This document shows, piece by piece, positions 1-8,703 of a stretch of 10,695 nucleotides of DNA; within the stretch, counting starts at the first letter, position 1; each line of letters opens with the position of its first letter. The notes under the pieces were generated by a model, which saw only the letters and a list, made by a program, of their open reading frames with translations, made no database searches and was not told the origin of the DNA. The stretch comes from Dehalococcoidia bacterium (lineage in GTDB: Bacteria; Chloroflexota; Dehalococcoidia; Dehalococcoidales; UBA1222). The DNA lies in contig QZJY01000057.1 of the NCBI GenBank assembly GCA_003597995.1, positions 1 through 10,695 of the forward strand. The letters are read 5' to 3'. The translations under genes were made by a program, and so were the position numbers.

Positions 1-449
1 GAGGCGGGGGCCTTGCCGCCCCGGGCCTGGATGCGGGCGAATGCCGTTTCCAGGGGCACACGCAACACGTAGTAGCAAGTTCTAAGCCCGCGACCCGCGG
101 CATATAGGTGGTATTGGCGGGTGTGGAGCATCACGCCCTCCCATGCGACCGCCCAATATCCCGCCTTTTTCGCCTGGATACAGGCATGTTCCAGGGCATT
201 AAGGATCTCAATCTTCGAGCCGATACGGTCCACACCCGGAATCTTAACACTCGGCGTGAGATAGTCGCCGATGAGCACAATGCCGAAATTCCTTACCGCC
301 GTGAGGGGTACCGTGTACCCTGCCACTACCGACTCACCCTGCTCGGCCACAGCACGGAGCACGGTCGACTTGCCCGCACCATTCGTTCCAAGAACAGTTA
401 GCAAGACCAGGGGCGATCCATCAAAGGCATTTACGCCGAAGGTAGTCAC
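1..449 (-). CDS. P-loop NTPase/kinase-like protein. The N-terminus is in the window and the C-terminus runs past position 1.
   Basis: Manual minus-strand translation gives (V/M)TTFGVNAFDGSPLVLLTVLGTNGAGKSTVLRAVAEQGESVVAGYTVPLTAVRNFGIVLIGDYLTPSVKIPGVDRIGSKIEILNALEHACIQAKKAGYWAVAWEGVMLHTRQYHLYAAGRGLRTCYYVLRVPLETAFARIQARGGKAPA..., open to position 1. It has a Walker A motif (GTNGAGKST) preceded by a hydrophobic strand, and a hydrophobic strand ending in Asp (GIVLIGD) that resembles Walker B. An in-frame TGA sits at 453-455, followed by GTG at 447-449. The gene is absent from the ORF track, presumably because it has no stop inside the window. Confidence 0.6.
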   Translation of the reverse strand, partial: MTTFGVNAFDGSPLVLLTVLGTNGAGKSTVLRAVAEQGESVVAGYTVPLTAVRNFGIVLIGDYLTPSVKIPGVDRIGSKIEILNALEHACIQAKKAGYWAVAWEGVMLHTRQYHLYAAGRGLRTCYYVLRVPLETAFARIQARGGKAPA

Positions 450-453
450 CCGA

Positions 454-651
454 TCACGTACGGCGCGTGTGGGCCTTGTGGATCTTCGTTGAGCGAGCCT
501 TGCCGCAGGTCGGGCAGATGCGAGTTTGGTAGAATGGCGTGGGGCGGCGCTCGCCGGTCGTAAGCTGATGTTCGCGCACCACGTTGTCGGCTTGAATGCG
601 CGCCACGAGACGGGCCATCTCACTGGGGGTGCGGGCGTACTTCCGCGCCAT
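454..651 (-). CDS. Small basic protein of about 65 aa with a CPTC Cys pair; function unknown.
   Basis: This is the track ORF 454..678. Its first M at 678 is actually a TTG codon. An in-frame ATG at 649-651 lies 1 nt after the upstream kinase stop (653-655), giving MARKYARTPSEMARLVARIQADNVVREHQLTTGERRPTPFYQTRICPTCGKARSTKIHKAHTRRT. Third-position GC is very high, about 80% by hand count, which supports coding. The protein is rich in Arg and Lys. Confidence 0.45.
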   Translation of the reverse strand: MARKYARTPSEMARLVARIQADNVVREHQLTTGERRPTPFYQTRICPTCGKARSTKIHKAHTRRT

Positions 652-652
652 G

Positions 653-1222
653 TCAGGAGGACCTAATAGCGCGGTCAATCCACGCGTGAATCACAGCGTG
701 CTCAGGATAGCCCGGGGTAATCCAGAATTCCGCAACCTCGTGCAACGGCGCTGCGGGGTGGTCCCGTTGGAACTTGGCGAACGCCCGGGTATACCGGGAG
801 GCAAAGAGTTGTTCCGCATTCCGGCTGCCGCTTTCCCAAAACTCCTTGCGGTACGCCTTACCCCGGCGCACACAGCGGGCTTCGATATGGCGTGCACCGA
901 CCTCTACCGTCTGGAGCATCAGCGCCGCGCGGAGCCCCCGGTACATGCCGAAGGTGGACTGATGCACGAGGCACCGGAAGACGGCACTGTAGATCCGTGT
1001 ACCCTCAATAAGAAGCACGCGGGCCCGCGGATCGGCCCACCGTGTCATCATGTTGCGAAAGGTCGTCACCAACGGCTTCTGAAGAAGGGTATCTTCATCC
1101 GCCGTAATAACCCATTCGGGCTTGATCAGCCCTGCCTGGACCAGTCGTTCGCCGGCCTGGCGGAGCACCGTAGTCTTGCCGGCAGCGTTGCCGCCGGCAA
1201 GCAGGATGGCGCTGTATTGCAC
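653..1222 (-). CDS. P-loop kinase-like protein of 189 aa. It could be a (d)NMP kinase or a modified-nucleotide or DNA kinase; its specificity is unknown.
   Basis: Walker A (AILLAGGNAAGKTTVLRQ) lies at the extreme N-terminus, followed by an acidic strand (VITADED). The size matches small nucleotide kinases. The start is GTG at 1220-1222, immediately after an in-frame stop. Order of motifs and spacing are similar to the truncated P-loop gene at 1..449, suggesting a paralog. Confidence 0.7.
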   Translation of the reverse strand: MQYSAILLAGGNAAGKTTVLRQAGERLVQAGLIKPEWVITADEDTLLQKPLVTTFRNMMTRWADPRARVLLIEGTRIYSAVFRCLVHQSTFGMYRGLRAALMLQTVEVGARHIEARCVRRGKAYRKEFWESGSRNAEQLFASRYTRAFAKFQRDHPAAPLHEVAEFWITPGYPEHAVIHAWIDRAIRSS

Positions 1223-1467: not shown

Positions 1468-3000
1468 CTAGACCCCCTTATCCTCCACAGCGTTCAGATC
1501 GGACACCCCTGCCTTGGCCAACAGCGGGCTGATGTCGATACCCATCGCCTTGCACCGTTCAACGAGCGCGAAGAGGGCTTGGGGCCCAATACCCACGTAC
1601 CGGTCCAAGGCGCTACCGTGCCCGTTGCTGCTGCCGGAATCCATGACGATGATCTTATCCGCCTCAGCCAACGGCGCCGTCGCCGCGGCCATGACCCCGC
1701 TGAATTCCTTGATCGCGGCCGGCACCAGCGTTTGGGCAGCCTCGAGGATCTGGAGGAGCCGGCCGGCTTCATTCAGGGCCTTGTATGCTTCGGCCTTCTT
1801 GAGCGTGCCCTCAGCTTCCGCGAGGAGTTTGGCACGGATGCCGTCGGCTTCGGCCAGCAACTCGGCCCGCTTTGCCGCGGCCCGCCCTTCGCCTTCCGCG
1901 GCCAGGGCTTTACGCTGTGCTTCGGCCTCGATTTCTATCGCCCGCGCCCGGCCTTCCGCCGCGACCTCGGCCGAGCGACGCTGTGCTTCGGCCGGCCTGA
2001 TTACTTCTGCCACGAGTTCCTGCTCGCGACGAGCAGCCGCAGCCTCTGCCACTTCGGTTGCCTTGAGTGTGCGGACGAGTTCGACCTCTTGCTCCTTCTC
2101 CACGACCGCCTTCCGCGCTTCGGCCGTTGCCAACGGACCAGCCTGCTCGGCCCGGGCGCTTTCGGCGTTGGTTTCTGCCCTGTAACGGGCGACGCGTACG
2201 TCCTTTTCTTTCTCCGCCTCTTTGATCAGCGCAATGTTTTCCTGCTCCTTTACGGCACCTTCTTTTTCGGCGGTCGTGGCCTGGATAGTCGCTTCCTTCT
2301 GCGCGTCAGCGGCACCGATTTCGGCGTCCCGCTTGACCTCCGCGGTCCGCTTCAGCCCCAACGCGGCCAAATAGCCTTGCGAGTCGGACAGTTCCTTGAC
2401 CGTAAGGATATCGATCTTGAGCCCCAGGCGGGCCAGGTCGCTCTGTGACTCGTTAATCATACGCTGCTGGAACGCCGCCCGATCGCTGTTGATCTCCTCA
2501 ATGGACAGCGTGCCCAGCATGGAGCGCAGGTGGCCTTCCAGGGCCTCGTATGCCATCTGCCGGATCTCTTCTTGGCTTTTACCGATGAGCCGTTCGACGG
2601 CGTTGATAAGCAGCGTGTCCTCGCTGCCCACCTTGATGTTGGCAACGGCCTTGATCGACAGCGGCACGCCTTCCCGTGTGATAGCTTCTTGGACGGCTAG
2701 ATTCGGGATGGTGATGACCCGTAGGTCTAGCTCGTCCTTACGCTCGAGAAACGGGATAACGAGGGTCGCCCCACCGCGCACGAGGCGGTAGCCGACCGTT
2801 ACGGTCTGCTCCTCCCCGTTCTCATTGCGTGTCACGATCCGGTGCTGCCGCCCCGAGACAACGGCCACAAGATGTGGTGGCACTTTGATGTAGTTGGCCC
2901 GCAGCATCCGAATGATGATGGCGAGCATGAGCACGACAAGTCCAACGATGGCTAGCGTCGTCAACCATGCGGCTATCTGCTGTCCGATATCAAGACCCAC
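1468..3000 (-). CDS. floT: Flotillin of the FloT/YuaG type (SPFH/band-7 domain protein).
   Basis: The 510-aa protein has an N-terminal TM helix (LTTLAIVGLVVLMLAIIIRML) and an SPFH core containing RLVRGGATLVIPFLE, LIGKSQEEIRQMAYEALEGHLRSMLGTLSIEEI and LGLKIDILTVKELSDSQGYLAALGLKRTAEVKRDAEI. By recall these align closely with B. subtilis FloT. A long Ala/Glu/Arg-rich coiled-coil repeat region follows, then a C-terminal tail. The start is GTG at 2998-3000, overlapping the nfeD stop by 11 nt. Confidence 0.85.
   Translation of the reverse strand: MGLDIGQQIAAWLTTLAIVGLVVLMLAIIIRMLRANYIKVPPHLVAVVSGRQHRIVTRNENGEEQTVTVGYRLVRGGATLVIPFLERKDELDLRVITIPNLAVQEAITREGVPLSIKAVANIKVGSEDTLLINAVERLIGKSQEEIRQMAYEALEGHLRSMLGTLSIEEINSDRAAFQQRMINESQSDLARLGLKIDILTVKELSDSQGYLAALGLKRTAEVKRDAEIGAADAQKEATIQATTAEKEGAVKEQENIALIKEAEKEKDVRVARYRAETNAESARAEQAGPLATAEARKAVVEKEQEVELVRTLKATEVAEAAAARREQELVAEVIRPAEAQRRSAEVAAEGRARAIEIEAEAQRKALAAEGEGRAAAKRAELLAEADGIRAKLLAEAEGTLKKAEAYKALNEAGRLLQILEAAQTLVPAAIKEFSGVMAAATAPLAEADKIIVMDSGSSNGHGSALDRYVGIGPQALFALVERCKAMGIDISPLLAKAGVSDLNAVEDKGV
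1780..2350 (+). repeat. Low-complexity GC-rich coding repeats, the flotillin EA-rich coiled-coil region.
   Basis: gcttcggcc-like motifs recur around 1787, 1841, 1917, 1985, 2117 and 2160. On the minus strand they encode AEAE, AEGR and KRAE repeats. The same region produces long spurious plus-strand ORFs (1514..2185 and 1579..2448). Confidence 0.5.
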
Positions 3001-3508
3001 GGTGATTCTCCTTTACGCGGATGGAGGGTTTGACTAGCACCTGGTCTCCTATGAATGTTGTCAAAATTACACGGGTGCCGACGGGGTAGGCCGGCGCGTA
3101 CGGCTCCCCGGCCCGTGCGACGAATGTCTGTTGGTTCCCGCCGACATTGACGACAACTTCGCCGGCTGTTAGCCCCGGCCCCACTTGCACAGTCACGACG
3201 CCGGTGCGGCCGAAGACGTCTGCGGTTTGCACGTGACTCGTCGACTGTTGACGGCTGATCACACGGAGCATCCACACCATCAGCGCACCAAAGCACAGTC
3301 CCGCGAGTACCCCGTACCCGGCGGCGCCAACGATACCGAAGCCGGCGTAGCGAGCTAGCTGCCCGAACCCGCCAAACGCCGCGAGAAAGGCTGCAATTAC
3401 TTTCATGTTGGCTAACTGCGGCCCATCGTGGTCCAAATCCCCGTCGAGATCAAACAGGAACGCGATGAGCAGGCCGGCTAAGCCGACGGCGAGCAGTATG
3501 ACGAACAT
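2990..3508 (-). CDS. nfeD: NfeD-like membrane protein (YuaF/YqiJ type), the usual partner of flotillin.
   Basis: From the internal ATG (aa 51 of track ORF 2990..3658) the protein reads MFVILLAVGLAGLLIAFLFDLDGD..., with hydrophobic TM segments (VIAAFLAAFGGFGQL, GIVGAAGYGVLAGLCFGALMVWML). A C-terminal OB-like beta domain follows (GRTGVVTVQVGPGLTAGEVVVNVGGNQQTFVARAGEPYAPAYPVGTRVILTTFIGDQVLVKP). The ATG lies 5 nt downstream of the upstream gene's stop (3513). The GTG start at 3658 listed in the track would overlap the upstream gene by 146 nt and was disfavoured. Confidence 0.75.
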   Translation of the reverse strand: MFVILLAVGLAGLLIAFLFDLDGDLDHDGPQLANMKVIAAFLAAFGGFGQLARYAGFGIVGAAGYGVLAGLCFGALMVWMLRVISRQQSTSHVQTADVFGRTGVVTVQVGPGLTAGEVVVNVGGNQQTFVARAGEPYAPAYPVGTRVILTTFIGDQVLVKPSIRVKENHRGS

Positions 3509-3512
3509 GCCT

Positions 3513-4457
3513 TCACCCCTTGTGTACCCAATACTTGGGATTGCGGAACCGCTGCGGAATCGTGTCCCAGAGGCGTAGATCCGTGCTGGCTTTGGCCGGG
3601 TCGTAGGTGCGCTTTGCGCGCCCGAACTCCTTGAACCGCACGTATTTCTGGTATTCACATAAGGCTTGTTCGAGATTCTCCAAGGTTAGCGGGGGCCCAA
3701 GAAGCGTGGCGCCGGCTGCTGCTAGCTGGTCGTACTGGCTGTCGCGTAATTCCATCAGTGCCGGCTGCACCTGCGGCAGGCGTATGCGGCGCTCAAGCAA
3801 CAGGTCAAGCCCCCGAATCGCTCCGGGTCCACAGAAGGCCCACTCGTCGAGCCACGAGCTTGGGAGAATGTCGACTTCGGGGTAACAGCAGTCAATCATG
3901 ATCTCAAAGGCGTTAAACCCGGCCCAGCCGGGCACTTGCATGAGCACGCGATGCGCCTGGACGGGGTTGGTGGCATCGGCCAGTTCGTCAAGGACGCGGC
4001 TAACGTGTTCCGCGAGCCATGTCAGATTCGTGATAATCGTGCGTAGCTTGCCCCCGCCGCCCCCGCCGCCGTGACCAGTGATCATATACGCCCCGGTGAA
4101 GATCTTCACGCCTTGGGCCCGGAGCGCCTCCAACCGGTGGAACATCCGTTTGGAGCTCCAGGACTCAGGCGTCAGGTAGCCGCCGAGAGCGTCGTAGGTA
4201 GCCGGCCACCCAAAGGAGCGGAAGGCCGCGACGTTAAAGAGCTGGTTTTCTGGCTTGCCTTGCTCGGGCAGACGGCGAAGAAGTTCGCGCGTCCCCCGAT
4301 CTAGTTCACGGTAAATGTTCGTGAATGCTACGCTGCGCAACACCTGATCCTCGGACCACGGCGGCGGTTCCAGTCGAATGATCCGGCGCACGAACACCGC
4401 ATGTCGCTCAGCGACAAACCGCCAAAACTGTGGAACATGCTCAGGGTGCCAGTCCAT
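3513..4457 (-). CDS. Hypothetical 314-aa protein with a poly-Gly loop (GHGGGGGGGK). Candidate partner enzyme of the adjacent TS-like gene; function unknown.
   Basis: The ORF has an ATG start at 4455-4457, 7 nt after the TS-like gene's TAG stop, and its stop lies 5 nt before the nfeD start. Codon usage and third-position GC match the neighbouring genes. I could assign no family from the sequence alone. The Gly-rich loop does not fit the Walker A pattern GxxxxGK[ST]. Confidence 0.75.
   Translation of the reverse strand: MDWHPEHVPQFWRFVAERHAVFVRRIIRLEPPPWSEDQVLRSVAFTNIYRELDRGTRELLRRLPEQGKPENQLFNVAAFRSFGWPATYDALGGYLTPESWSSKRMFHRLEALRAQGVKIFTGAYMITGHGGGGGGGKLRTIITNLTWLAEHVSRVLDELADATNPVQAHRVLMQVPGWAGFNAFEIMIDCCYPEVDILPSSWLDEWAFCGPGAIRGLDLLLERRIRLPQVQPALMELRDSQYDQLAAAGATLLGPPLTLENLEQALCEYQKYVRFKEFGRAKRTYDPAKASTDLRLWDTIPQRFRNPKYWVHKG
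4051..4068 (+). repeat. Perfect tandem 9-mer (cccccgccg) x2 inside the 314-aa CDS, encoding the Gly7 run.
   Basis: Read directly from the sequence: cccccgccgcccccgccg at 4051-4068. Its reverse complement, ggc ggc ggg ggc ggc ggg ggc, encodes GGGGGGG. The repeat unit is a multiple of three. Confidence 0.8.
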
Positions 4458-4464
4458 GTCGTCC

Positions 4465-5637
4465 CTACGGGCCGTGATATTCAGGCAAGGAAGGCTGCAC
4501 AGCCCCGTCGTGTTTAATGTAGGCGAGTACGACGGCCGGATAATCCGGGAGATAAACGTGGCGCGTTACGTGCCGCCGCGCTGCCCACCGCCACAGGAAT
4601 TCCCATGCGGCCACGGCCCAATCCTGCGCAGCTACACAGTGGAGTTCGTCGACTGCCCGTTGGCATCGCTCAACGTTGTCGCGGGCACTTGTACCGTGTA
4701 AGTGGCCCCATGCCCGTAACATTCGCCGGACGCTCTCCCAATACGGACAATCGACCGGATCGTCGAGCGTTCGGGCCAACAGGGCCGCCCGTGCCAACGC
4801 CGGACCGGGGGCCATGCGGGTAAACGGCACGTGCCGGTACACGTCAAAGGACACGTGAGGATTCTCGACGAGTCGGCGTACGATGGGATCATCCTCGTAC
4901 ACGTGCAGGCTGGAGCTGAAGTGCGAATACTCGCCGACGTCCACCCCAAGCTCACAGGCCAACGCCTCCTGGATGGTCGTAAATTGCACGATGTTTGTAT
5001 ACGAAAGGCCCAGGACCAAATCGTTCGAGCGGTTGAAGGTAGCCGCCCAGAGCTTGCCATCCCGCAGTTGGTACGTGCAGGCTATGTTGCAGGGCATATC
5101 ACGGGTCTCTACCTGCGGGTTATCGAGTTCCGGATCCCTCAGCACGGTGGCAGCGCGGCGGCTGCCGGCGTCCAATCGCAACTGCGCGAGGACGTCTTTA
5201 AGCTGGTCTGCGGTGCCCTGAAACCCCGCACGACGCAGGCGCTTACCGTACGCGCCATGGAAGTCCGGCCCGCCGTCCAAGTACTGGCGGAGTTGTGAGT
5301 TGTACCGGCAAATCCATTCGGCGTCACTCCGGCCGGCCAGGATCCACACGGGTTCCGCTAGCTGGAAAAAGGGGTTTGCCCGCCGGTACGGGATTGTAAG
5401 CACCCGCTGCCGGGGCTGCACCAGCATAGTCAGGGCGTGTAGCATTTCCCTGTGCGTGCGCCCCCGGGAGGTTACGGGGGTGCCATAGAGGCGCATTTGC
5501 TGTACGGCGTCTACAAACCACTCGTTCGCATGCCCGGCCAAGATCAGCCGTTCGGCCTGGTGCTCGCTGGAGGCGCCCCACTTTCCGGCAGCGGTTTCGT
5601 CAGCGTTGGGCGGTGAGCCGTTTCCGTTGCCTGTCAC
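4465..5637 (-). CDS. Thymidylate-synthase-family enzyme, divergent. It may be a canonical thymidylate synthase or a pyrimidine hydroxymethylase; uracil specificity is predicted.
   Basis: The 390-aa protein aligns, by recall, block for block with E. coli ThyA. HGAYGKRLRRAG matches GPVYGKQWRAW. DQLKDVLAQLRLDAGSRRAATVLRDPELD...MPCNIACTYQLRDGKLWAATFNRSNDLVLGLSYTNIVQFTTIQEALACELGVDVGEYSHFSSSLHVYEDD matches [26 protein letters not shown]...[69 protein letters not shown]. The catalytic Cys and the Asn equivalent to E. coli N177 (dUMP specificity) are present. It differs from ThyA in three ways: PCN replaces PCH, there are about 90 extra C-terminal residues, and there is a low-complexity N-terminal extension of about 25 aa. 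The start is GTG at 5635-5637, overlapping the RuvC gene's stop by 38 nt; an alternative TTG start lies about 31 codons downstream. Confidence 0.85.
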   Translation of the reverse strand: MTGNGNGSPPNADETAAGKWGASSEHQAERLILAGHANEWFVDAVQQMRLYGTPVTSRGRTHREMLHALTMLVQPRQRVLTIPYRRANPFFQLAEPVWILAGRSDAEWICRYNSQLRQYLDGGPDFHGAYGKRLRRAGFQGTADQLKDVLAQLRLDAGSRRAATVLRDPELDNPQVETRDMPCNIACTYQLRDGKLWAATFNRSNDLVLGLSYTNIVQFTTIQEALACELGVDVGEYSHFSSSLHVYEDDPIVRRLVENPHVSFDVYRHVPFTRMAPGPALARAALLARTLDDPVDCPYWESVRRMLRAWGHLHGTSARDNVERCQRAVDELHCVAAQDWAVAAWEFLWRWAARRHVTRHVYLPDYPAVVLAYIKHDGAVQPSLPEYHGP

Positions 5638-6271: not shown

Positions 6272-6458
6272 AAGTCACCTCAAGCACTTCGACATCCACA
6301 CGTCGATACGGGATGCCGGGCGTGTTATTGCCGCATTTGTAGCAGAAGAACGCGGTGTCCTGCATCGTGTGCACGAGGCCCACCTTGCAACGTGTGCACA
6401 GATAAATCGTGTCCGGCACGGACATCATGCGATGTTCGGCGTAGTGCGGCATTGTCAT
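6192..6458 (-). CDS. Small Zn-ribbon protein of 88 aa from the internal ATG; function unknown.
   Basis: This is track ORF 6192..6569. The ATG at 6456-6458 forms an ATGA overlap with the Dcd-like gene's TGA stop (6455-6457). The protein reads MTMPHYAEHRMMSVPDTIYLCTRCKVGLVHTMQDTAFFCYKCGNN..., with a CxxC...CxxC motif and a basic C-terminal tail. Its last 80 nt overlap the RuvC N-terminus in another frame. In that overlap the third-position GC is lower for this frame than for the RuvC frame. Confidence 0.5.
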   Translation of the reverse strand: MTMPHYAEHRMMSVPDTIYLCTRCKVGLVHTMQDTAFFCYKCGNNTPGIPYRRVDVEVLEVTYGQAAGQQPARKQRRPKLPSRHRRRG

Positions 6459-6967
6459 GGGCGTGCTAGCTGCGCCGTTGCTGCCCCTTGGTAACGGCCG
6501 TTGTAGGGGTTGCGGGCAAGGCTGGAGAGCCGGTGGACGACCACCTGTGCGAACCGCAGCCCAGGCCAAAGGGGCAGTTGATGATAGCGCGTCTCATTCT
6601 TAATTTCCATCGTCCCAATGCCGTCCCACCCCGGGTCAAACCAAAAGGCCACGGTATGATTCCAGCCTTCACGGGCCCGGCTGGACTTCATCTTCAACTC
6701 CAGCGCATACCCGTTCGGTACGTGGAGCCACTCCCATGTTGACGTAAGGAGGAATGCCCCGGGGTCAACAAGAAACGGTTTCTCCTCACTGTACCCCGCA
6801 AGCGAGTGCGGCTCCCATCCGGGGACACGCCCGGGCTTTTCTACCCAAGCGTCAGTACCAATGCGGATGTCAACCGATGCGGGATTTACAAGCTTCCGGT
6901 CTTCGTCGGGCGCCTTGGGAAACAGCACAGGAAACAGGTCGTCCAGCTCCCGATCACTTAGAGGCAT
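6455..6967 (-). CDS. dcd: dCTP-deaminase-family protein (dUTPase superfamily), possibly a bifunctional dCTP deaminase/dUTPase.
   Basis: The 170-aa protein reads MPLSDRELDDLFP...VNPASVDIRIGTD, which compares with E. coli Dcd MRLCDRDIEAW...VDVRLGN. It also has KMKSSRAREGW (Ser/Arg motif), FDPGWDGIGTMEIKNE (the Dcd-type DPGWxG motif plus the catalytic Glu) and GLRFAQVV. The ATG at 6965-6967 overlaps the Rad50-like gene's TAA stop by 10 nt. Confidence 0.8.
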   Translation of the reverse strand: MPLSDRELDDLFPVLFPKAPDEDRKLVNPASVDIRIGTDAWVEKPGRVPGWEPHSLAGYSEEKPFLVDPGAFLLTSTWEWLHVPNGYALELKMKSSRAREGWNHTVAFWFDPGWDGIGTMEIKNETRYHQLPLWPGLRFAQVVVHRLSSLARNPYNGRYQGAATAQLARP

Positions 6968-8703
6968 TCGACCTCCGCTTCGCCTTGGGAACGTGTCACA
7001 CGCACCACACGGGCACCGGGAAACAGCGCCTTCTGGTCCTGATTGTGTGTAATCACAAATACGGTTACACCGTTGTGGACTTCTTCATGGAGCATGTCAA
7101 TGATAGCGCGCATCCCCGTAGGATCAATACCGCTGAGGCATTCGTCTAAGACTAACAGGTTCACCGGTTCAGGCATGCGCCACCGGGCTAGGGCCCGCAG
7201 CGCCCACGCGATGATGAGATTTACTCGTTCCTTTTCGCCCCGGCTCAGCCCCTCGTACGTCGGGGCACTGGCCCCGCTGATGCGAATGAGGTCTTCATTG
7301 CGGCTGGTGCGAAGCGAGTTAAACTCAACGTGAATTGTGCCGCCAGTCAGCCGGCGACTGACGGCGGCGGCGGTGCGGTTGAGCACCGGCAATGCTTGTG
7401 CAAAGAGATAGGCTTGCAGGCCGTCGCGGCCAAACTCCTTAACCCAAAACGTCGCCCGTTCCAACAGCGTCGTCTTGAGGCTCAGTTCAGTCTTTGCTTC
7501 CCGCAACGCGGCGTCGGCGCGCTCCACCTGTTCGGCGGCGAGTCGGCGATGCGCGGCCTGTTCCTCCTGCTGTCGATGAATCTCCCGCATTTGGTGTTCA
7601 AGGGCATCTTGCCCCTGCGCCGCGGTTTCCAACCGGCGGTAGTCCTGCTCGGCGGCCTGTAGCGCGGCCTGTAGCTTTGCGGCCTGCTCGGTCGTGTGTT
7701 GGGCCTGCTCAGCGGCCTCCGCGCGATCGGCATGCAAGCCCGCCAGCCGACGTTCACTAGCTTTCCGCTGCTTTTTCAACTCCGCAACATTGTCGAACGG
7801 TCGCTTGCAGGTAGGGCAAGCAGTTGAGAAGTCCTGCGCGGCCAGGGAGCGTATTTCCCCGTCCAGACGGTGAACGGTTGCGAGACGTGTATTCGCCTCT
7901 TGCTGGGCCTTGTCGTAGGCGGCCTTACGCACCCGACAAGAGAGTTCGCTCTTAGTCAAGAGGCTCTGCGCGTGTTTCGCTTGCCGTAGTCGTTCCTCAA
8001 GCCGCTCTAGGGCGGCTTCGTAATCGTACGTAGCGGCAGCGCGCACGTGCGCAAGGAAACGCTCCGCCTCGACATGCACCGCCTCCCGTTCCCGTACGAC
8101 CGCCGCGGCGGTGGCCCGCTCCTTCTCGAGGGACGCGGCGTGTTTTGCGGCCAGGGCTGCCGCCTCATTCAATTCGCCTAGCTTGAGCACGGCCTCCAGC
8201 ACGGCCATCTGCCCGGAGAAGCCGGCCTGTGCAAGCGTCGATTCGCCGCTGAGCACGACCGCGGCGCAAAGGGTGGCATAATCGAGACCAAACAGGGCCT
8301 CCGTGTCACGGGCGCGCACGGCCGCATCCCGTGACAGCGGCACCCCCTGCTCTTCAAGTGTAGAAATTACAAGACTCGGGTGACCCTTGGCCGTGCGGGC
8401 GCGACGCAGGCGGACAACGGCCCCCGAATCAAGTTGAATAAGCTCCTCGACGTCGGCGCCGCGTAGGGGGTGGGCGGCGTCGTCGGTAACTGCTCGATTG
8501 CCGTACCGGACCATCTTACCGAAGAGGGCCCACAGAAGCGTTTCGACGATAACGAGCGACTTTCCAGCGCCGTTACTATCCGCGGCGCCGGGGGTGTCGA
8601 GGTTGACGCCCTCGACGAGAACAATTCCGGGGCGGTTAAGTGGAAGGGTGACCGGGCGGCGGATCCGGTTGAAGCTGTGGATCCGATGTTCGAGGAACTT
8701 CAC
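6958..8703 (-). CDS. Rad50/SbcC-like ATPase of the SMC-type ABC family, with a zinc hook.
   Basis: The 581-aa protein has an SbcC-like N-terminus (MKFLEHRIHSFNRIRRPVTLPL...DSNGAGKS, Walker A). A long Ala/Glu/Arg-rich coiled coil follows, with a central CPTC hook (DFSTACPTCKRPFDN). The C-terminus carries the signature motif (LSRGEKERV), Walker B (LLVLDECLSGID) and an H-loop (VFVITHN). The start is GTG at 8701-8703. Confidence 0.85.
   Translation of the reverse strand: MKFLEHRIHSFNRIRRPVTLPLNRPGIVLVEGVNLDTPGAADSNGAGKSLVIVETLLWALFGKMVRYGNRAVTDDAAHPLRGADVEELIQLDSGAVVRLRRARTAKGHPSLVISTLEEQGVPLSRDAAVRARDTEALFGLDYATLCAAVVLSGESTLAQAGFSGQMAVLEAVLKLGELNEAAALAAKHAASLEKERATAAAVVREREAVHVEAERFLAHVRAAATYDYEAALERLEERLRQAKHAQSLLTKSELSCRVRKAAYDKAQQEANTRLATVHRLDGEIRSLAAQDFSTACPTCKRPFDNVAELKKQRKASERRLAGLHADRAEAAEQAQHTTEQAAKLQAALQAAEQDYRRLETAAQGQDALEHQMREIHRQQEEQAAHRRLAAEQVERADAALREAKTELSLKTTLLERATFWVKEFGRDGLQAYLFAQALPVLNRTAAAVSRRLTGGTIHVEFNSLRTSRNEDLIRISGASAPTYEGLSRGEKERVNLIIAWALRALARWRMPEPVNLLVLDECLSGIDPTGMRAIIDMLHEEVHNGVTVFVITHNQDQKALFPGARVVRVTRSQGEAEVECL

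Follow-up and report, generated by a model that had tools for sequence, protein, structure and literature searches.

Phages that hypermodify thymidine provide the closest described systems for the locus considered here, and two protein families, known as clades of alpha-glutamyl/putrescinyl thymine pyrophosphorylase (aGPT-Pplase), are found in them. Clade 2 (Pfam PF18724) comprises the amino acid:DNA transferases (ADDT), in which a Cys is the essential nucleophile acting on C6 of 5-phosphomethyl-deoxyuridine (5-PmdU) (PMC8989533). In the active site of one such enzyme, PUGT, Cys247 is accompanied by Glu243, which lies four residues upstream and binds metal (PMC11472151), and in the YuA enzyme the Lys after the Cys (K248) binds the glycine carboxylate (PMC13458397). 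Clade 1, now Pfam PF18723, occurs in HTVC023P-type pelagiphages, where thymidylate synthase (TS) and aG/PT-PPlase1 genes have a glucosyltransferase and a 5'-deoxynucleotidase nearby (PMC9599517), and in Bacillus phage SP10, which makes alpha-glutamylthymidine and for which Table 3 of Lee 2018 gives ADDT as 'N/d' (PMC5889632). It also occurs in E. coli DS-4 ('NTTI'), an experimentally validated anti-phage system (DefensePredictor) whose PF18723 protein is labelled '5-hmU kinase' (PMC13092281). Here we analyse a clade 1 protein, hereafter the target, encoded on contig QZJY01000057.1; the complete 10,695-bp contig, which we call the window, was deposited within a Dehalococcoidia metagenome-assembled genome (MAG; locus tag C4542_07420). 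The target almost certainly belongs to PF18723, and an invariant Cys motif in its C-terminal region aligns with the catalytic Cys of clade 2, pointing to a possible role in DNA base processing.

3513–4457, minus strand: target coding sequence, aGPT-Pplase clade 1 / PF18723 (HMUDK_hel) protein of 314 residues, ATG at 4457, TGA at 3515–3513.

The original prediction, made from the letters alone, had placed a 314-residue open reading frame (ORF) at these positions and described it as an orphan of no recognised family. The ORF is real, running from ATG to TGA with an N-terminus that lines up with the starts of its homologs, and a Pfam E-value of 5e-50 puts it far beyond chance; its coordinates stand, and its strand had to be corrected to minus. 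The orphan status falls away, as the target is a full-length member of PF18723 (E = 5.2e-50, 170.8 bits against a cutoff of 25, residues 8–275 covering model positions 4–274 of 281), also matches PHROG 2396, and shares PF18723 with all 21 of its database homologs. Pseudomonas phage M6 gp55, which consists of PF18723 alone, is 29% identical to the target (E = 4e-22), and SP10 gp186 carries a PF18748 kinase (residues 35–193) fused to PF18723 (residues 313–598), an arrangement confined to proteins of the gp186 type. The Pfam name HMUDK_hel, given to what was formerly aGPT-Pplase clade 1, reflects SP10 gp186, and GenBank entries of related phages use the labels 'aGPT-Pplase1 domain-containing' or 'alpha-glutamyl/putrescinyl thymine pyrophosphorylase clade 1'. 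No kinase domain of the P-loop type was found in the target polypeptide, for which Pfam returns PF18723 only; NCBIfam and PADLOC hold no family for it, and searches of PDB sequences with the target or with a 21-sequence profile gave only spurious poly-Gly or coiled-coil matches.

The family is large and widely distributed. A total of 368 phage records contain homologs, among them those of ViI-like Ackermannviridae, of M6/YuA-like Pseudomonas phages and of SP10-like Bacillus phages; further homologs lie at no fewer than 548 loci in IMG/VR and at 106 loci among 185,579 species genomes. A phmmer search against 1.84 billion representatives of clusters at 50% identity returned 3,286 of them at E <= 1e-3, and 1,660 when the threshold was E <= 1e-10. 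The closest relatives of the target are 44–50% identical, 50% being the maximum to any of these representatives, and the target is less than 30% identical to every protein encoded in 50,697 phage records. It is thus a divergent twig of a known, named family and founds no new one. The novelty claimed for it is lost for the same reason, since the family was named years ago and its pairing with TS is known in pelagiphages and M6-like phages (PMC9599517, PMC5889632). The suggestion of a base-modification enzyme of the aGPT-Pplase type with a TS-like partner fared better, as family membership, the TS-like neighbours of its relatives and a kinase gene in the window bear it out at the family level; transferase activity itself has been demonstrated for clade 2 only (PMC8989533). 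No match to an unrelated family arose, and homologs do lie near TS-like and kinase genes, the two points on which the original prediction had staked its proposal.

The structure and conserved residues of the target were examined using an AlphaFold2 model built with 21 homologs (mean predicted local distance difference test score, pLDDT, 91.8; predicted template modelling score 0.90) and an alignment of 88 clade 1 homologs. The model is all-alpha and resembles helix-hairpin-helix (HhH) DNA glycosylases, and its best structural match is a transferase, not a glycosylase. Residues R18, F45, N47, R50, D53, R80, F181, D189, GPG210–212, G216, C267, E268 and K271 are invariant in all 88 homologs, while at position 263 there are 76 sequences with Glu and 12 with Gln. 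Two conserved elements stand out in the C-terminal half of the protein:

3645–3671, minus strand: predicted active-site motif E263-Q-A-L-C267-E268-Y-Q-K271, with a putative catalytic Cys and flanking acidic and basic residues.
3891–3935, minus strand: HhH-like element V175–D189 (VPGWAGFNAFEIMID) with the invariant F181 and D189.

The strongest indication of catalytic potential comes from hhalign, by which the 88-sequence clade 1 alignment was compared with a 14-sequence clade 2 alignment. The two align with a probability of 93.5% and an E-value of 2.3e-7 over residues 163–274 of the target only, LEQALCEYQKY being placed over VETVLCKWKSH of M6 gp51, so that C267 falls on the catalytic Cys of clade 2 and E263 on its metal-binding Glu. 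By sequence searches no such link was detected, there being no PF18724 match at E <= 10 and no BLASTP match to M6 gp51, and a PDB profile search does not reach PUGT (8Z2M). The residue that follows the Cys is an invariant Glu268 in clade 1 and a Lys in clade 2; with the Cys motif kept, this exchange suggests that the nucleophile machinery is retained and that the co-substrate pocket differs. Compared with HhH-GPD proteins the fold is alike; Pfam gives no HhH-GPD match, the invariant GPGxxRG is followed by Asn in 61 of the 88 sequences, and the invariant D189 lies inside the HhH helix.

The target had first drawn attention through a seven-glycine loop, whose sequence GHGGGGGGGK we confirm at residues 128–137:

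4047–4076, minus strand: Gly-rich loop G128–K137 (GHGGGGGGGK), ending in the near-invariant Lys137.
4050–4070, on the coding strand: perfect 9-nt tandem repeat, GGCGGCGGG in 2.3 copies, encoding the Gly7 run (Tandem Repeats Finder, period 9, 100% matches).

The Gly7 run is encoded by GGCGGCGGG GGCGGCGGG GGC and is private to the target, the longest glycine run in the loop among its 87 relatives being two. The family loop spans the segment from the [FY]TGAYM motif to Lys137, with the modal form LTGTLGGTK of 9 residues as compared with 12 in the target; loop lengths of 9–12 residues are common, Lys137 is kept in 85 of the 88 sequences, and deletion of one 9-nt unit returns the target to the modal length of 9. 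Given the perfect repeat and this return to modal length, the Gly7 run is most readily accounted for by slippage that recently duplicated one unit, in frame, within a length-tolerant loop. The run, at residues 128–134, is also the only stretch of the target with pLDDT below 50, and the Lys137 loop sits at the N-terminus of helix 136–161. The original prediction had read the glycines as a phosphate- or nucleotide-binding loop that is not a Walker A motif. Its second part is right, since Leu follows the Lys, the predicted fold is all-alpha and no match to a P-loop family was obtained. Its first part may hold for the underlying loop only: the family's conserved Gly-rich loop ending in Lys137 probably contacts phosphate, and the extra glycines of the target, the Gly7 run itself, define nothing.

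The genes around the target were then considered, as they are central to its functional interpretation. All genes of the window lie on the minus strand, in the order Mre11/SbcD-like phosphoesterase, two small ORFs, Rad50/SbcC-like ATPase, dCTP-deaminase-like gene, RuvC-like resolvase, TS-like gene and target, followed by NfeD-like and SPFH/flotillin genes, a 58-aa ORF, a 189-aa P-loop gene, a 74-aa ORF and a gene cut short by the left contig end. The window is a fragment of a phage replication and thymidine-hypermodification module, in which three genes can be connected with 5-hydroxymethyl-deoxyuridine (5-hmdU):

4465–5637, minus strand: TS-like gene, 390 aa, a probable dUMP hydroxymethylase judged from its sequence (PF00303, E = 4.7e-18; PHROG 5131, E = 6.9e-72).
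6455–6967, minus strand: dCTP-deaminase-like gene, 170 aa (PF22769, E = 1.6e-18; PHROG 1663, E = 2.1e-34; TIGR02274, 87 bits against a cutoff of 92.8).
1–449, minus strand: kinase acting on 5-hmdU DNA (5-HMUDK), GTG at 449, C-terminus cut by the contig end, at least 149 aa (PF18748 HMUDK_HMUD1, E = 6.6e-8).

The TS homology of the gene upstream of the target had been anticipated, and these PF00303 and PHROG matches bear it out; the protein is 33% identical to M6 gp58 (E = 8e-41) and 42% identical to the TS of a syntenic metagenomic contig (L004). The dCTP-deaminase-like protein probably supplies dU nucleotides to the TS-like enzyme. The gap of 7 nt between the TS-like gene (TAG at 4467–4465) and the target ATG is as first described, and the spacer from the target TGA to the next ATG (3508) is 4 nt, where 5 nt had been given. 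A Shine-Dalgarno-like AGGGA lies 5' of the target ATG, and a scan of the coding strand across the junctions of the TS-like gene, the target and the next gene revealed no promoter- or terminator-like sites, which makes co-transcription of the target with the TS-like gene plausible. The kinase fragment scores 32.7 bits against PF18748 (cutoff 27) and matches the local family hidden Markov model (HMM) with an E-value of 2.6e-42; it carries the Walker A sequence GTNGAGKST and shares 43% identity with the PF18748 kinase on a second syntenic contig (L002). This gene was absent from the ORF list and from the original prediction because its ORF runs off the contig end, and its truncation shows that the contig breaks inside the thymidine-hypermodification cluster. 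Some 3 kb, holding the NfeD-like, SPFH/flotillin, 58-aa, 189-aa P-loop and 74-aa ORFs, separate the kinase from the target. An attempt to extend the contig through an exact 30-mer of its left end found no match among metagenome contigs, and the whole window gave no megablast match in the 50,697 phage records.

The assignment of the window to a phage-type module is further strengthened by synteny with the two metagenomic contigs L002 and L004, to which identities are 45% for Mre11, 40–42% for Rad50, 45% for RuvC, 42% for TS, 44–47% for the target and 43% for the kinase. On L002 (35 kb) the cluster comprises TS, HD phosphohydrolase, PF18723, a 317-aa protein, a pyridoxal phosphate (PLP) enzyme, an acetyltransferase, a radical SAM protein, a PF18724 ADDT and a PF18748 kinase, and is flanked by RecA, helicase and DnaG. 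The 317-aa protein, which has no Pfam family, is conserved directly after the PF18723 gene on both contigs (L002 10948–11901, L004 6295–7248) and has no counterpart in the window; it may be one more component of hypermodification.

To place the target in a family-wide context, we searched a census of 88 loci (80 from IMG/VR, 7 others and the window) with locally iterated family HMMs. Of the 88, 75 have a TS-like gene no more than 10 kb away, and in 70 of these 75 the distance is at most 2.2 kb; an HD phosphohydrolase is present in 34. The TAGT (TET-associated) glycosyltransferase, a 261-aa neighbour (PF20691, E = 3.9e-26), occurs in 46 loci and abuts the PF18723 gene in 27 (an example is L084 11700–12485, among IMG/VR loci L008–L087). 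The 5-hmdU DNA kinase was found within 10 kb in 17 loci and an ADDT in 14, and no locus of the 88 combines TAGT with kinase or ADDT. This mutual exclusion implies that 5-hmdU can be processed along either of two routes, with the clade 1 protein common to both. Where present, the kinase is usually immediately upstream of the PF18723 gene, as in M6 (14 of 19 within 700 nt). The pairing of TS with PF18723 seen here is a confirmation and not a discovery. Some members occur in other settings: gut Alphaproteobacteria MAGs (L122–L157) and Haloferax isolates (L113, L114) carry PF18723 in conserved chromosomal surroundings with no TS, kinase, ADDT or TAGT close by, and a 131-kb bacterial contig (L005, 9349–12042) has a cassette of Tmk-like kinase, PF18723 and TS.

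Considering the observed family membership, fold, conservation of the Cys, Glu and Lys residues, alignment to the clade-2 Cys and gene neighbourhood together, the evidence leans modestly towards the target being a Cys-dependent DNA base-processing enzyme in phage thymidine hypermodification, a reading in which catalysis, substrate and product are predicted. In the proposed pathway, the dCTP-deaminase-like protein and the TS-like dUMP hydroxymethylase would supply 5-hmdU for incorporation into phage DNA, and the 5-hmdU DNA kinase would phosphorylate the base within the DNA. The target would bind this DNA through its HhH-like fold and flip out the 5-(phospho)hydroxymethyl-uracil, upon which Cys267 may attack C6 of the pyrimidine, as in the clade-2 amino acid:DNA transferases. 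Departure of the C5 leaving group would then generate an exocyclic methylene intermediate, which a nucleophile, or a hydride giving thymine, could resolve. In SP10, a search of the whole genome with the local clade-2 HMM detected no ADDT at E <= 10, in keeping with the entry in Table 3 of Lee 2018, leaving the clade 1 domain of gp186 as the only candidate transferase detected there, which lends some further support to catalysis.

A number of observations weigh against this reading. We found no published activity for any clade 1 member in the literature searched; N-alpha-glycinylthymidine forms in vitro without M6 gp55, and in SP10 the kinase domain is active when its clade 1 domain is missing (PMC8989533). 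Forty-six of the 88 relatives adjoin TAGT with no kinase or ADDT nearby, which indicates that a phosphorylated substrate is not general for the family, and 61 of 80 loci from cellular genome assemblies have none of these partners within 8 kb. Glu follows the Cys where clade 2 has its carboxylate-binding Lys, and position 263 is Gln in 12 sequences of the 88. Moreover, the contig stops within the kinase gene, and any ADDT or tailoring enzymes would lie beyond view. The two in vitro results are also what would be expected if the target were a non-catalytic helical DNA-binding or targeting module of the 5-hmdU DNA kinase, setting the sites that are phosphorylated or tethering the kinase. This reading, which we consider unlikely, draws further on the fusion of PF18723 to the kinase in SP10 gp186, on the Pfam name 'helical domain', on the position of the kinase, which in M6 and most kinase-bearing loci is directly upstream, and on the partial and sequence-context-dependent character for which hypermodification is known; yet a pure binding module would not be expected to keep a Cys-Glu-x-x-Lys motif that is invariant in 88 of 88 sequences and aligned to the clade-2 catalytic Cys, a kinase lies within 10 kb in just 17 of the 88 loci (46 have TAGT instead), and in the window about 3 kb and several other genes lie between kinase and target. 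The same invariant Cys could instead serve an enzyme that restores thymine, converting leftover 5-hmdU or 5-PmdU to thymine in the polymer by Cys addition to C6, loss of the C5 substituent and hydride transfer. SP10, PhiW-14, M6 and ViI turn 5-hmdU into either the hypermodified base or thymine ahead of packaging (PMC8989533), a step without an assigned enzyme; in Lee 2018 Table 3, PhiW-14, ViI and M6 each have a second protein of the aG/PT-PPlase type, and for SP10 gp186C alone is given; a clade-2 enzyme treated with borohydride yields thymidine through a methylene intermediate; and a route-independent role would explain why the family appears in both TAGT and kinase contexts. Against these stand the lack of any reductant-binding motif or cofactor domain (Pfam returns PF18723 only), the absence of an experimental hint, and TAGT-context phages with no kinase to make the leaving group, and we regard thymine restoration as quite unlikely.

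The glycosylase-like fold raises the question of whether the target is a true HhH-type N-glycosidase on DNA or free nucleotides, for example one that removes T or U so that 5-hmdU fully replaces T. This is very unlikely, as the best structural match is a transferase, the family shows neither an HhH-GPD match in Pfam nor a conserved Asp behind its Gly/Pro loop (Asn follows GPGxxRG in 61 of 88), and the invariant Cys aligns with a transferase nucleophile. It is likewise highly improbable that the Gly7-Lys loop itself forms a nucleotide- or phosphate-binding P-loop defining a new enzyme activity: a Gly-rich GG-x-K loop at the N-terminus of helix 136–161 is conserved, with K137 in 85 of 88, but the run of seven occurs in the target only, two being the most in 87 relatives, and stems from a perfect tandem duplication of 9 nt, pLDDT there is below 50, and neither the Leu after the Lys, the all-alpha fold nor the family searches agree with a Walker A P-loop. 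Finally, the window might belong to a bacterial anti-phage defence locus like DS-4 rather than to a phage, given that DS-4 gene 3 (WP_087900470.1) is a PF18723 protein 23% identical to the target (E = 5e-16), that the contig was binned in a Dehalococcoidia MAG and that the 131-kb bacterial contig has its Tmk-like/PF18723/TS cassette. This proposal is barely credible in view of the synteny with phage-type replication modules (Mre11, Rad50, RuvC, TS, PF18723 and kinase, 40–47% to L002 and L004), of the RecA, helicase and DnaG genes that L002 also carries, and of the defence search, in which PADLOC recognised no family in the window beyond a weak P-loop match to PtuA on the kinase fragment and no TIR or Nmad2 partner was present.

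Returning to the Cys-dependent base-processing enzyme, a bolder, family-wide version of it can be formulated, which we consider speculative and rather unlikely: PF18723 would comprise active Cys-dependent enzymes that process 5-hydroxymethyluracil in DNA and are common to the TAGT route and to the route of kinase plus amino-acid transfer. Examples would be the long-sought enzyme that turns residual 5-hmdU or 5-PmdU into thymine within the polymer, or a transferase for a new class of nucleophile, the latter being conceivable because Glu268 replaces the carboxylate-binding Lys of clade 2, and the pathway of the target would make an undescribed thymidine modification. If this were true, the target, the kinase and a second P-loop paralog that is fused to the kinase elsewhere would belong to a pathway to that modification on a phage contig binned with a Dehalococcoidia (Chloroflexota) MAG. 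The P-loop paralog in question is the following gene:

653–1222, minus strand: 189-aa P-loop protein with Walker A GGNAAGKTT; fusion to the kinase is seen elsewhere.

This protein has no Pfam, PHROG or NCBIfam family and only two homologs among 5.8 billion proteins. It shares 35% identity (E = 3e-27) with a 442-aa IMG/VR ORF (L037 7855–9183) over the C-terminal half of the latter, whose N-terminal half is a 5-HMUDK domain, and such a 'Rosetta-stone' fusion suggests that 5-HMUDK has a second NTPase or kinase as its partner. A pyrophosphorylated intermediate has been proposed in older literature. The 189-aa ORF was also considered as the 5-HMUDK itself and rejected, since it has no PF18748 match and is missed by a kinase HMM built without the window sequences; its likeness to M6 gp54 is confined to the Walker A segment. 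Between both P-loop genes lies a 74-aa ORF with a CPTCG motif (454–678, minus strand), whose stop is 4 nt before the kinase GTG.

The gene downstream of the target had been named nfeD. Its architecture (transmembrane helices and a C-terminal beta domain, with an SPFH/flotillin gene next) looks NfeD-like; neither Pfam nor NCBIfam detects NfeD in it. The NfeD-like (172 aa) and SPFH/flotillin (510 aa) genes form a pair at 1468–3508 on the minus strand, between target and kinase; neither protein falls into a PHROG family, matches to flotillin-like proteins are limited to 10 of the 50,697 phage records, and the syntenic contigs L002 and L004 lack the pair. Short gene overlaps typical of tightly packed phage operons are also present on the minus strand, where the start of the dCTP-deaminase-like gene overlaps the end of the Rad50-like gene by 10 nt (6958–6967) and the Rad50-like start overlaps a 178-aa ORF by 68 nt (8636–8703).

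Overall, the analysis corrects the annotation of the cluster in the window to a dCTP-deaminase-like protein, a TS-like hydroxymethylase, an aGPT-Pplase clade 1 protein and a 5-hmdU DNA kinase, and the remaining interest is in the chemistry of the family, not in the target locus. Clade 1 counts 3,286 clusters with an invariant Cys-Glu-x-x-Lys, yet it has no assigned reaction and is labelled merely as the 'helical domain' of a kinase, a label that has already led to kinase naming in the defence-system paper. Its chemistry, if solved, would fill a gap in the phage DNA hypermodification pathway and bears on restriction evasion and on enzymatic tools for DNA labelling.

Compared with known systems, the target is most like the clade 1 proteins M6 gp55, the C-terminal domain of SP10 gp186 and pelagiphage aG/PT-PPlase1, with which it shares a full-length profile match over about 310 residues, the motifs F-x-N-x-x-R-E-x-D, [FY]TGAYM, GPGxxRG and LCExxKY, and, as genomic partners, a TS-like gene and a 5-hmdU DNA kinase (PMC9599517). 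It departs from the other clade 1 members in a Gly-rich loop lengthened by its private 9-nt duplication, and from M6 in a kinase gene that is not adjacent. With clade 2 (PF18724 ADDT; M6 gp51, ViI gp247, PaMx11 gp46/PUGT, PDB 8Z2M, and YuA Pplase2) it has in common the Cys and the Glu four residues upstream, and it differs from these enzymes in having no PF18724 match at E <= 10, in carrying Glu268 for Lys, and in being alignable only over residues 163–274. HhH DNA glycosylases and the queuosine hydrolase Qng1/DUF2419 are set apart from the target by its lack of an HhH-GPD match and of a conserved Asp behind the Gly/Pro loop, and by its conserved Cys, a putative nucleophile. The DS-4 system (TS, kinase, PF18723, TIR and Nmad2) has a protein of the same Pfam family, 23% identical, beside a TS homolog and a small P-loop kinase; its '5-hmU kinase' label is probably a misnomer, because the PF18723 domain has a glycosylase-like and not a kinase fold and the label derives from the Pfam name alone. 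The DS-4 protein belongs to a chromosomal defence setting and has TIR and Nmad2 as partners, whereas the target forms part of a phage replication and nucleotide-metabolism module.

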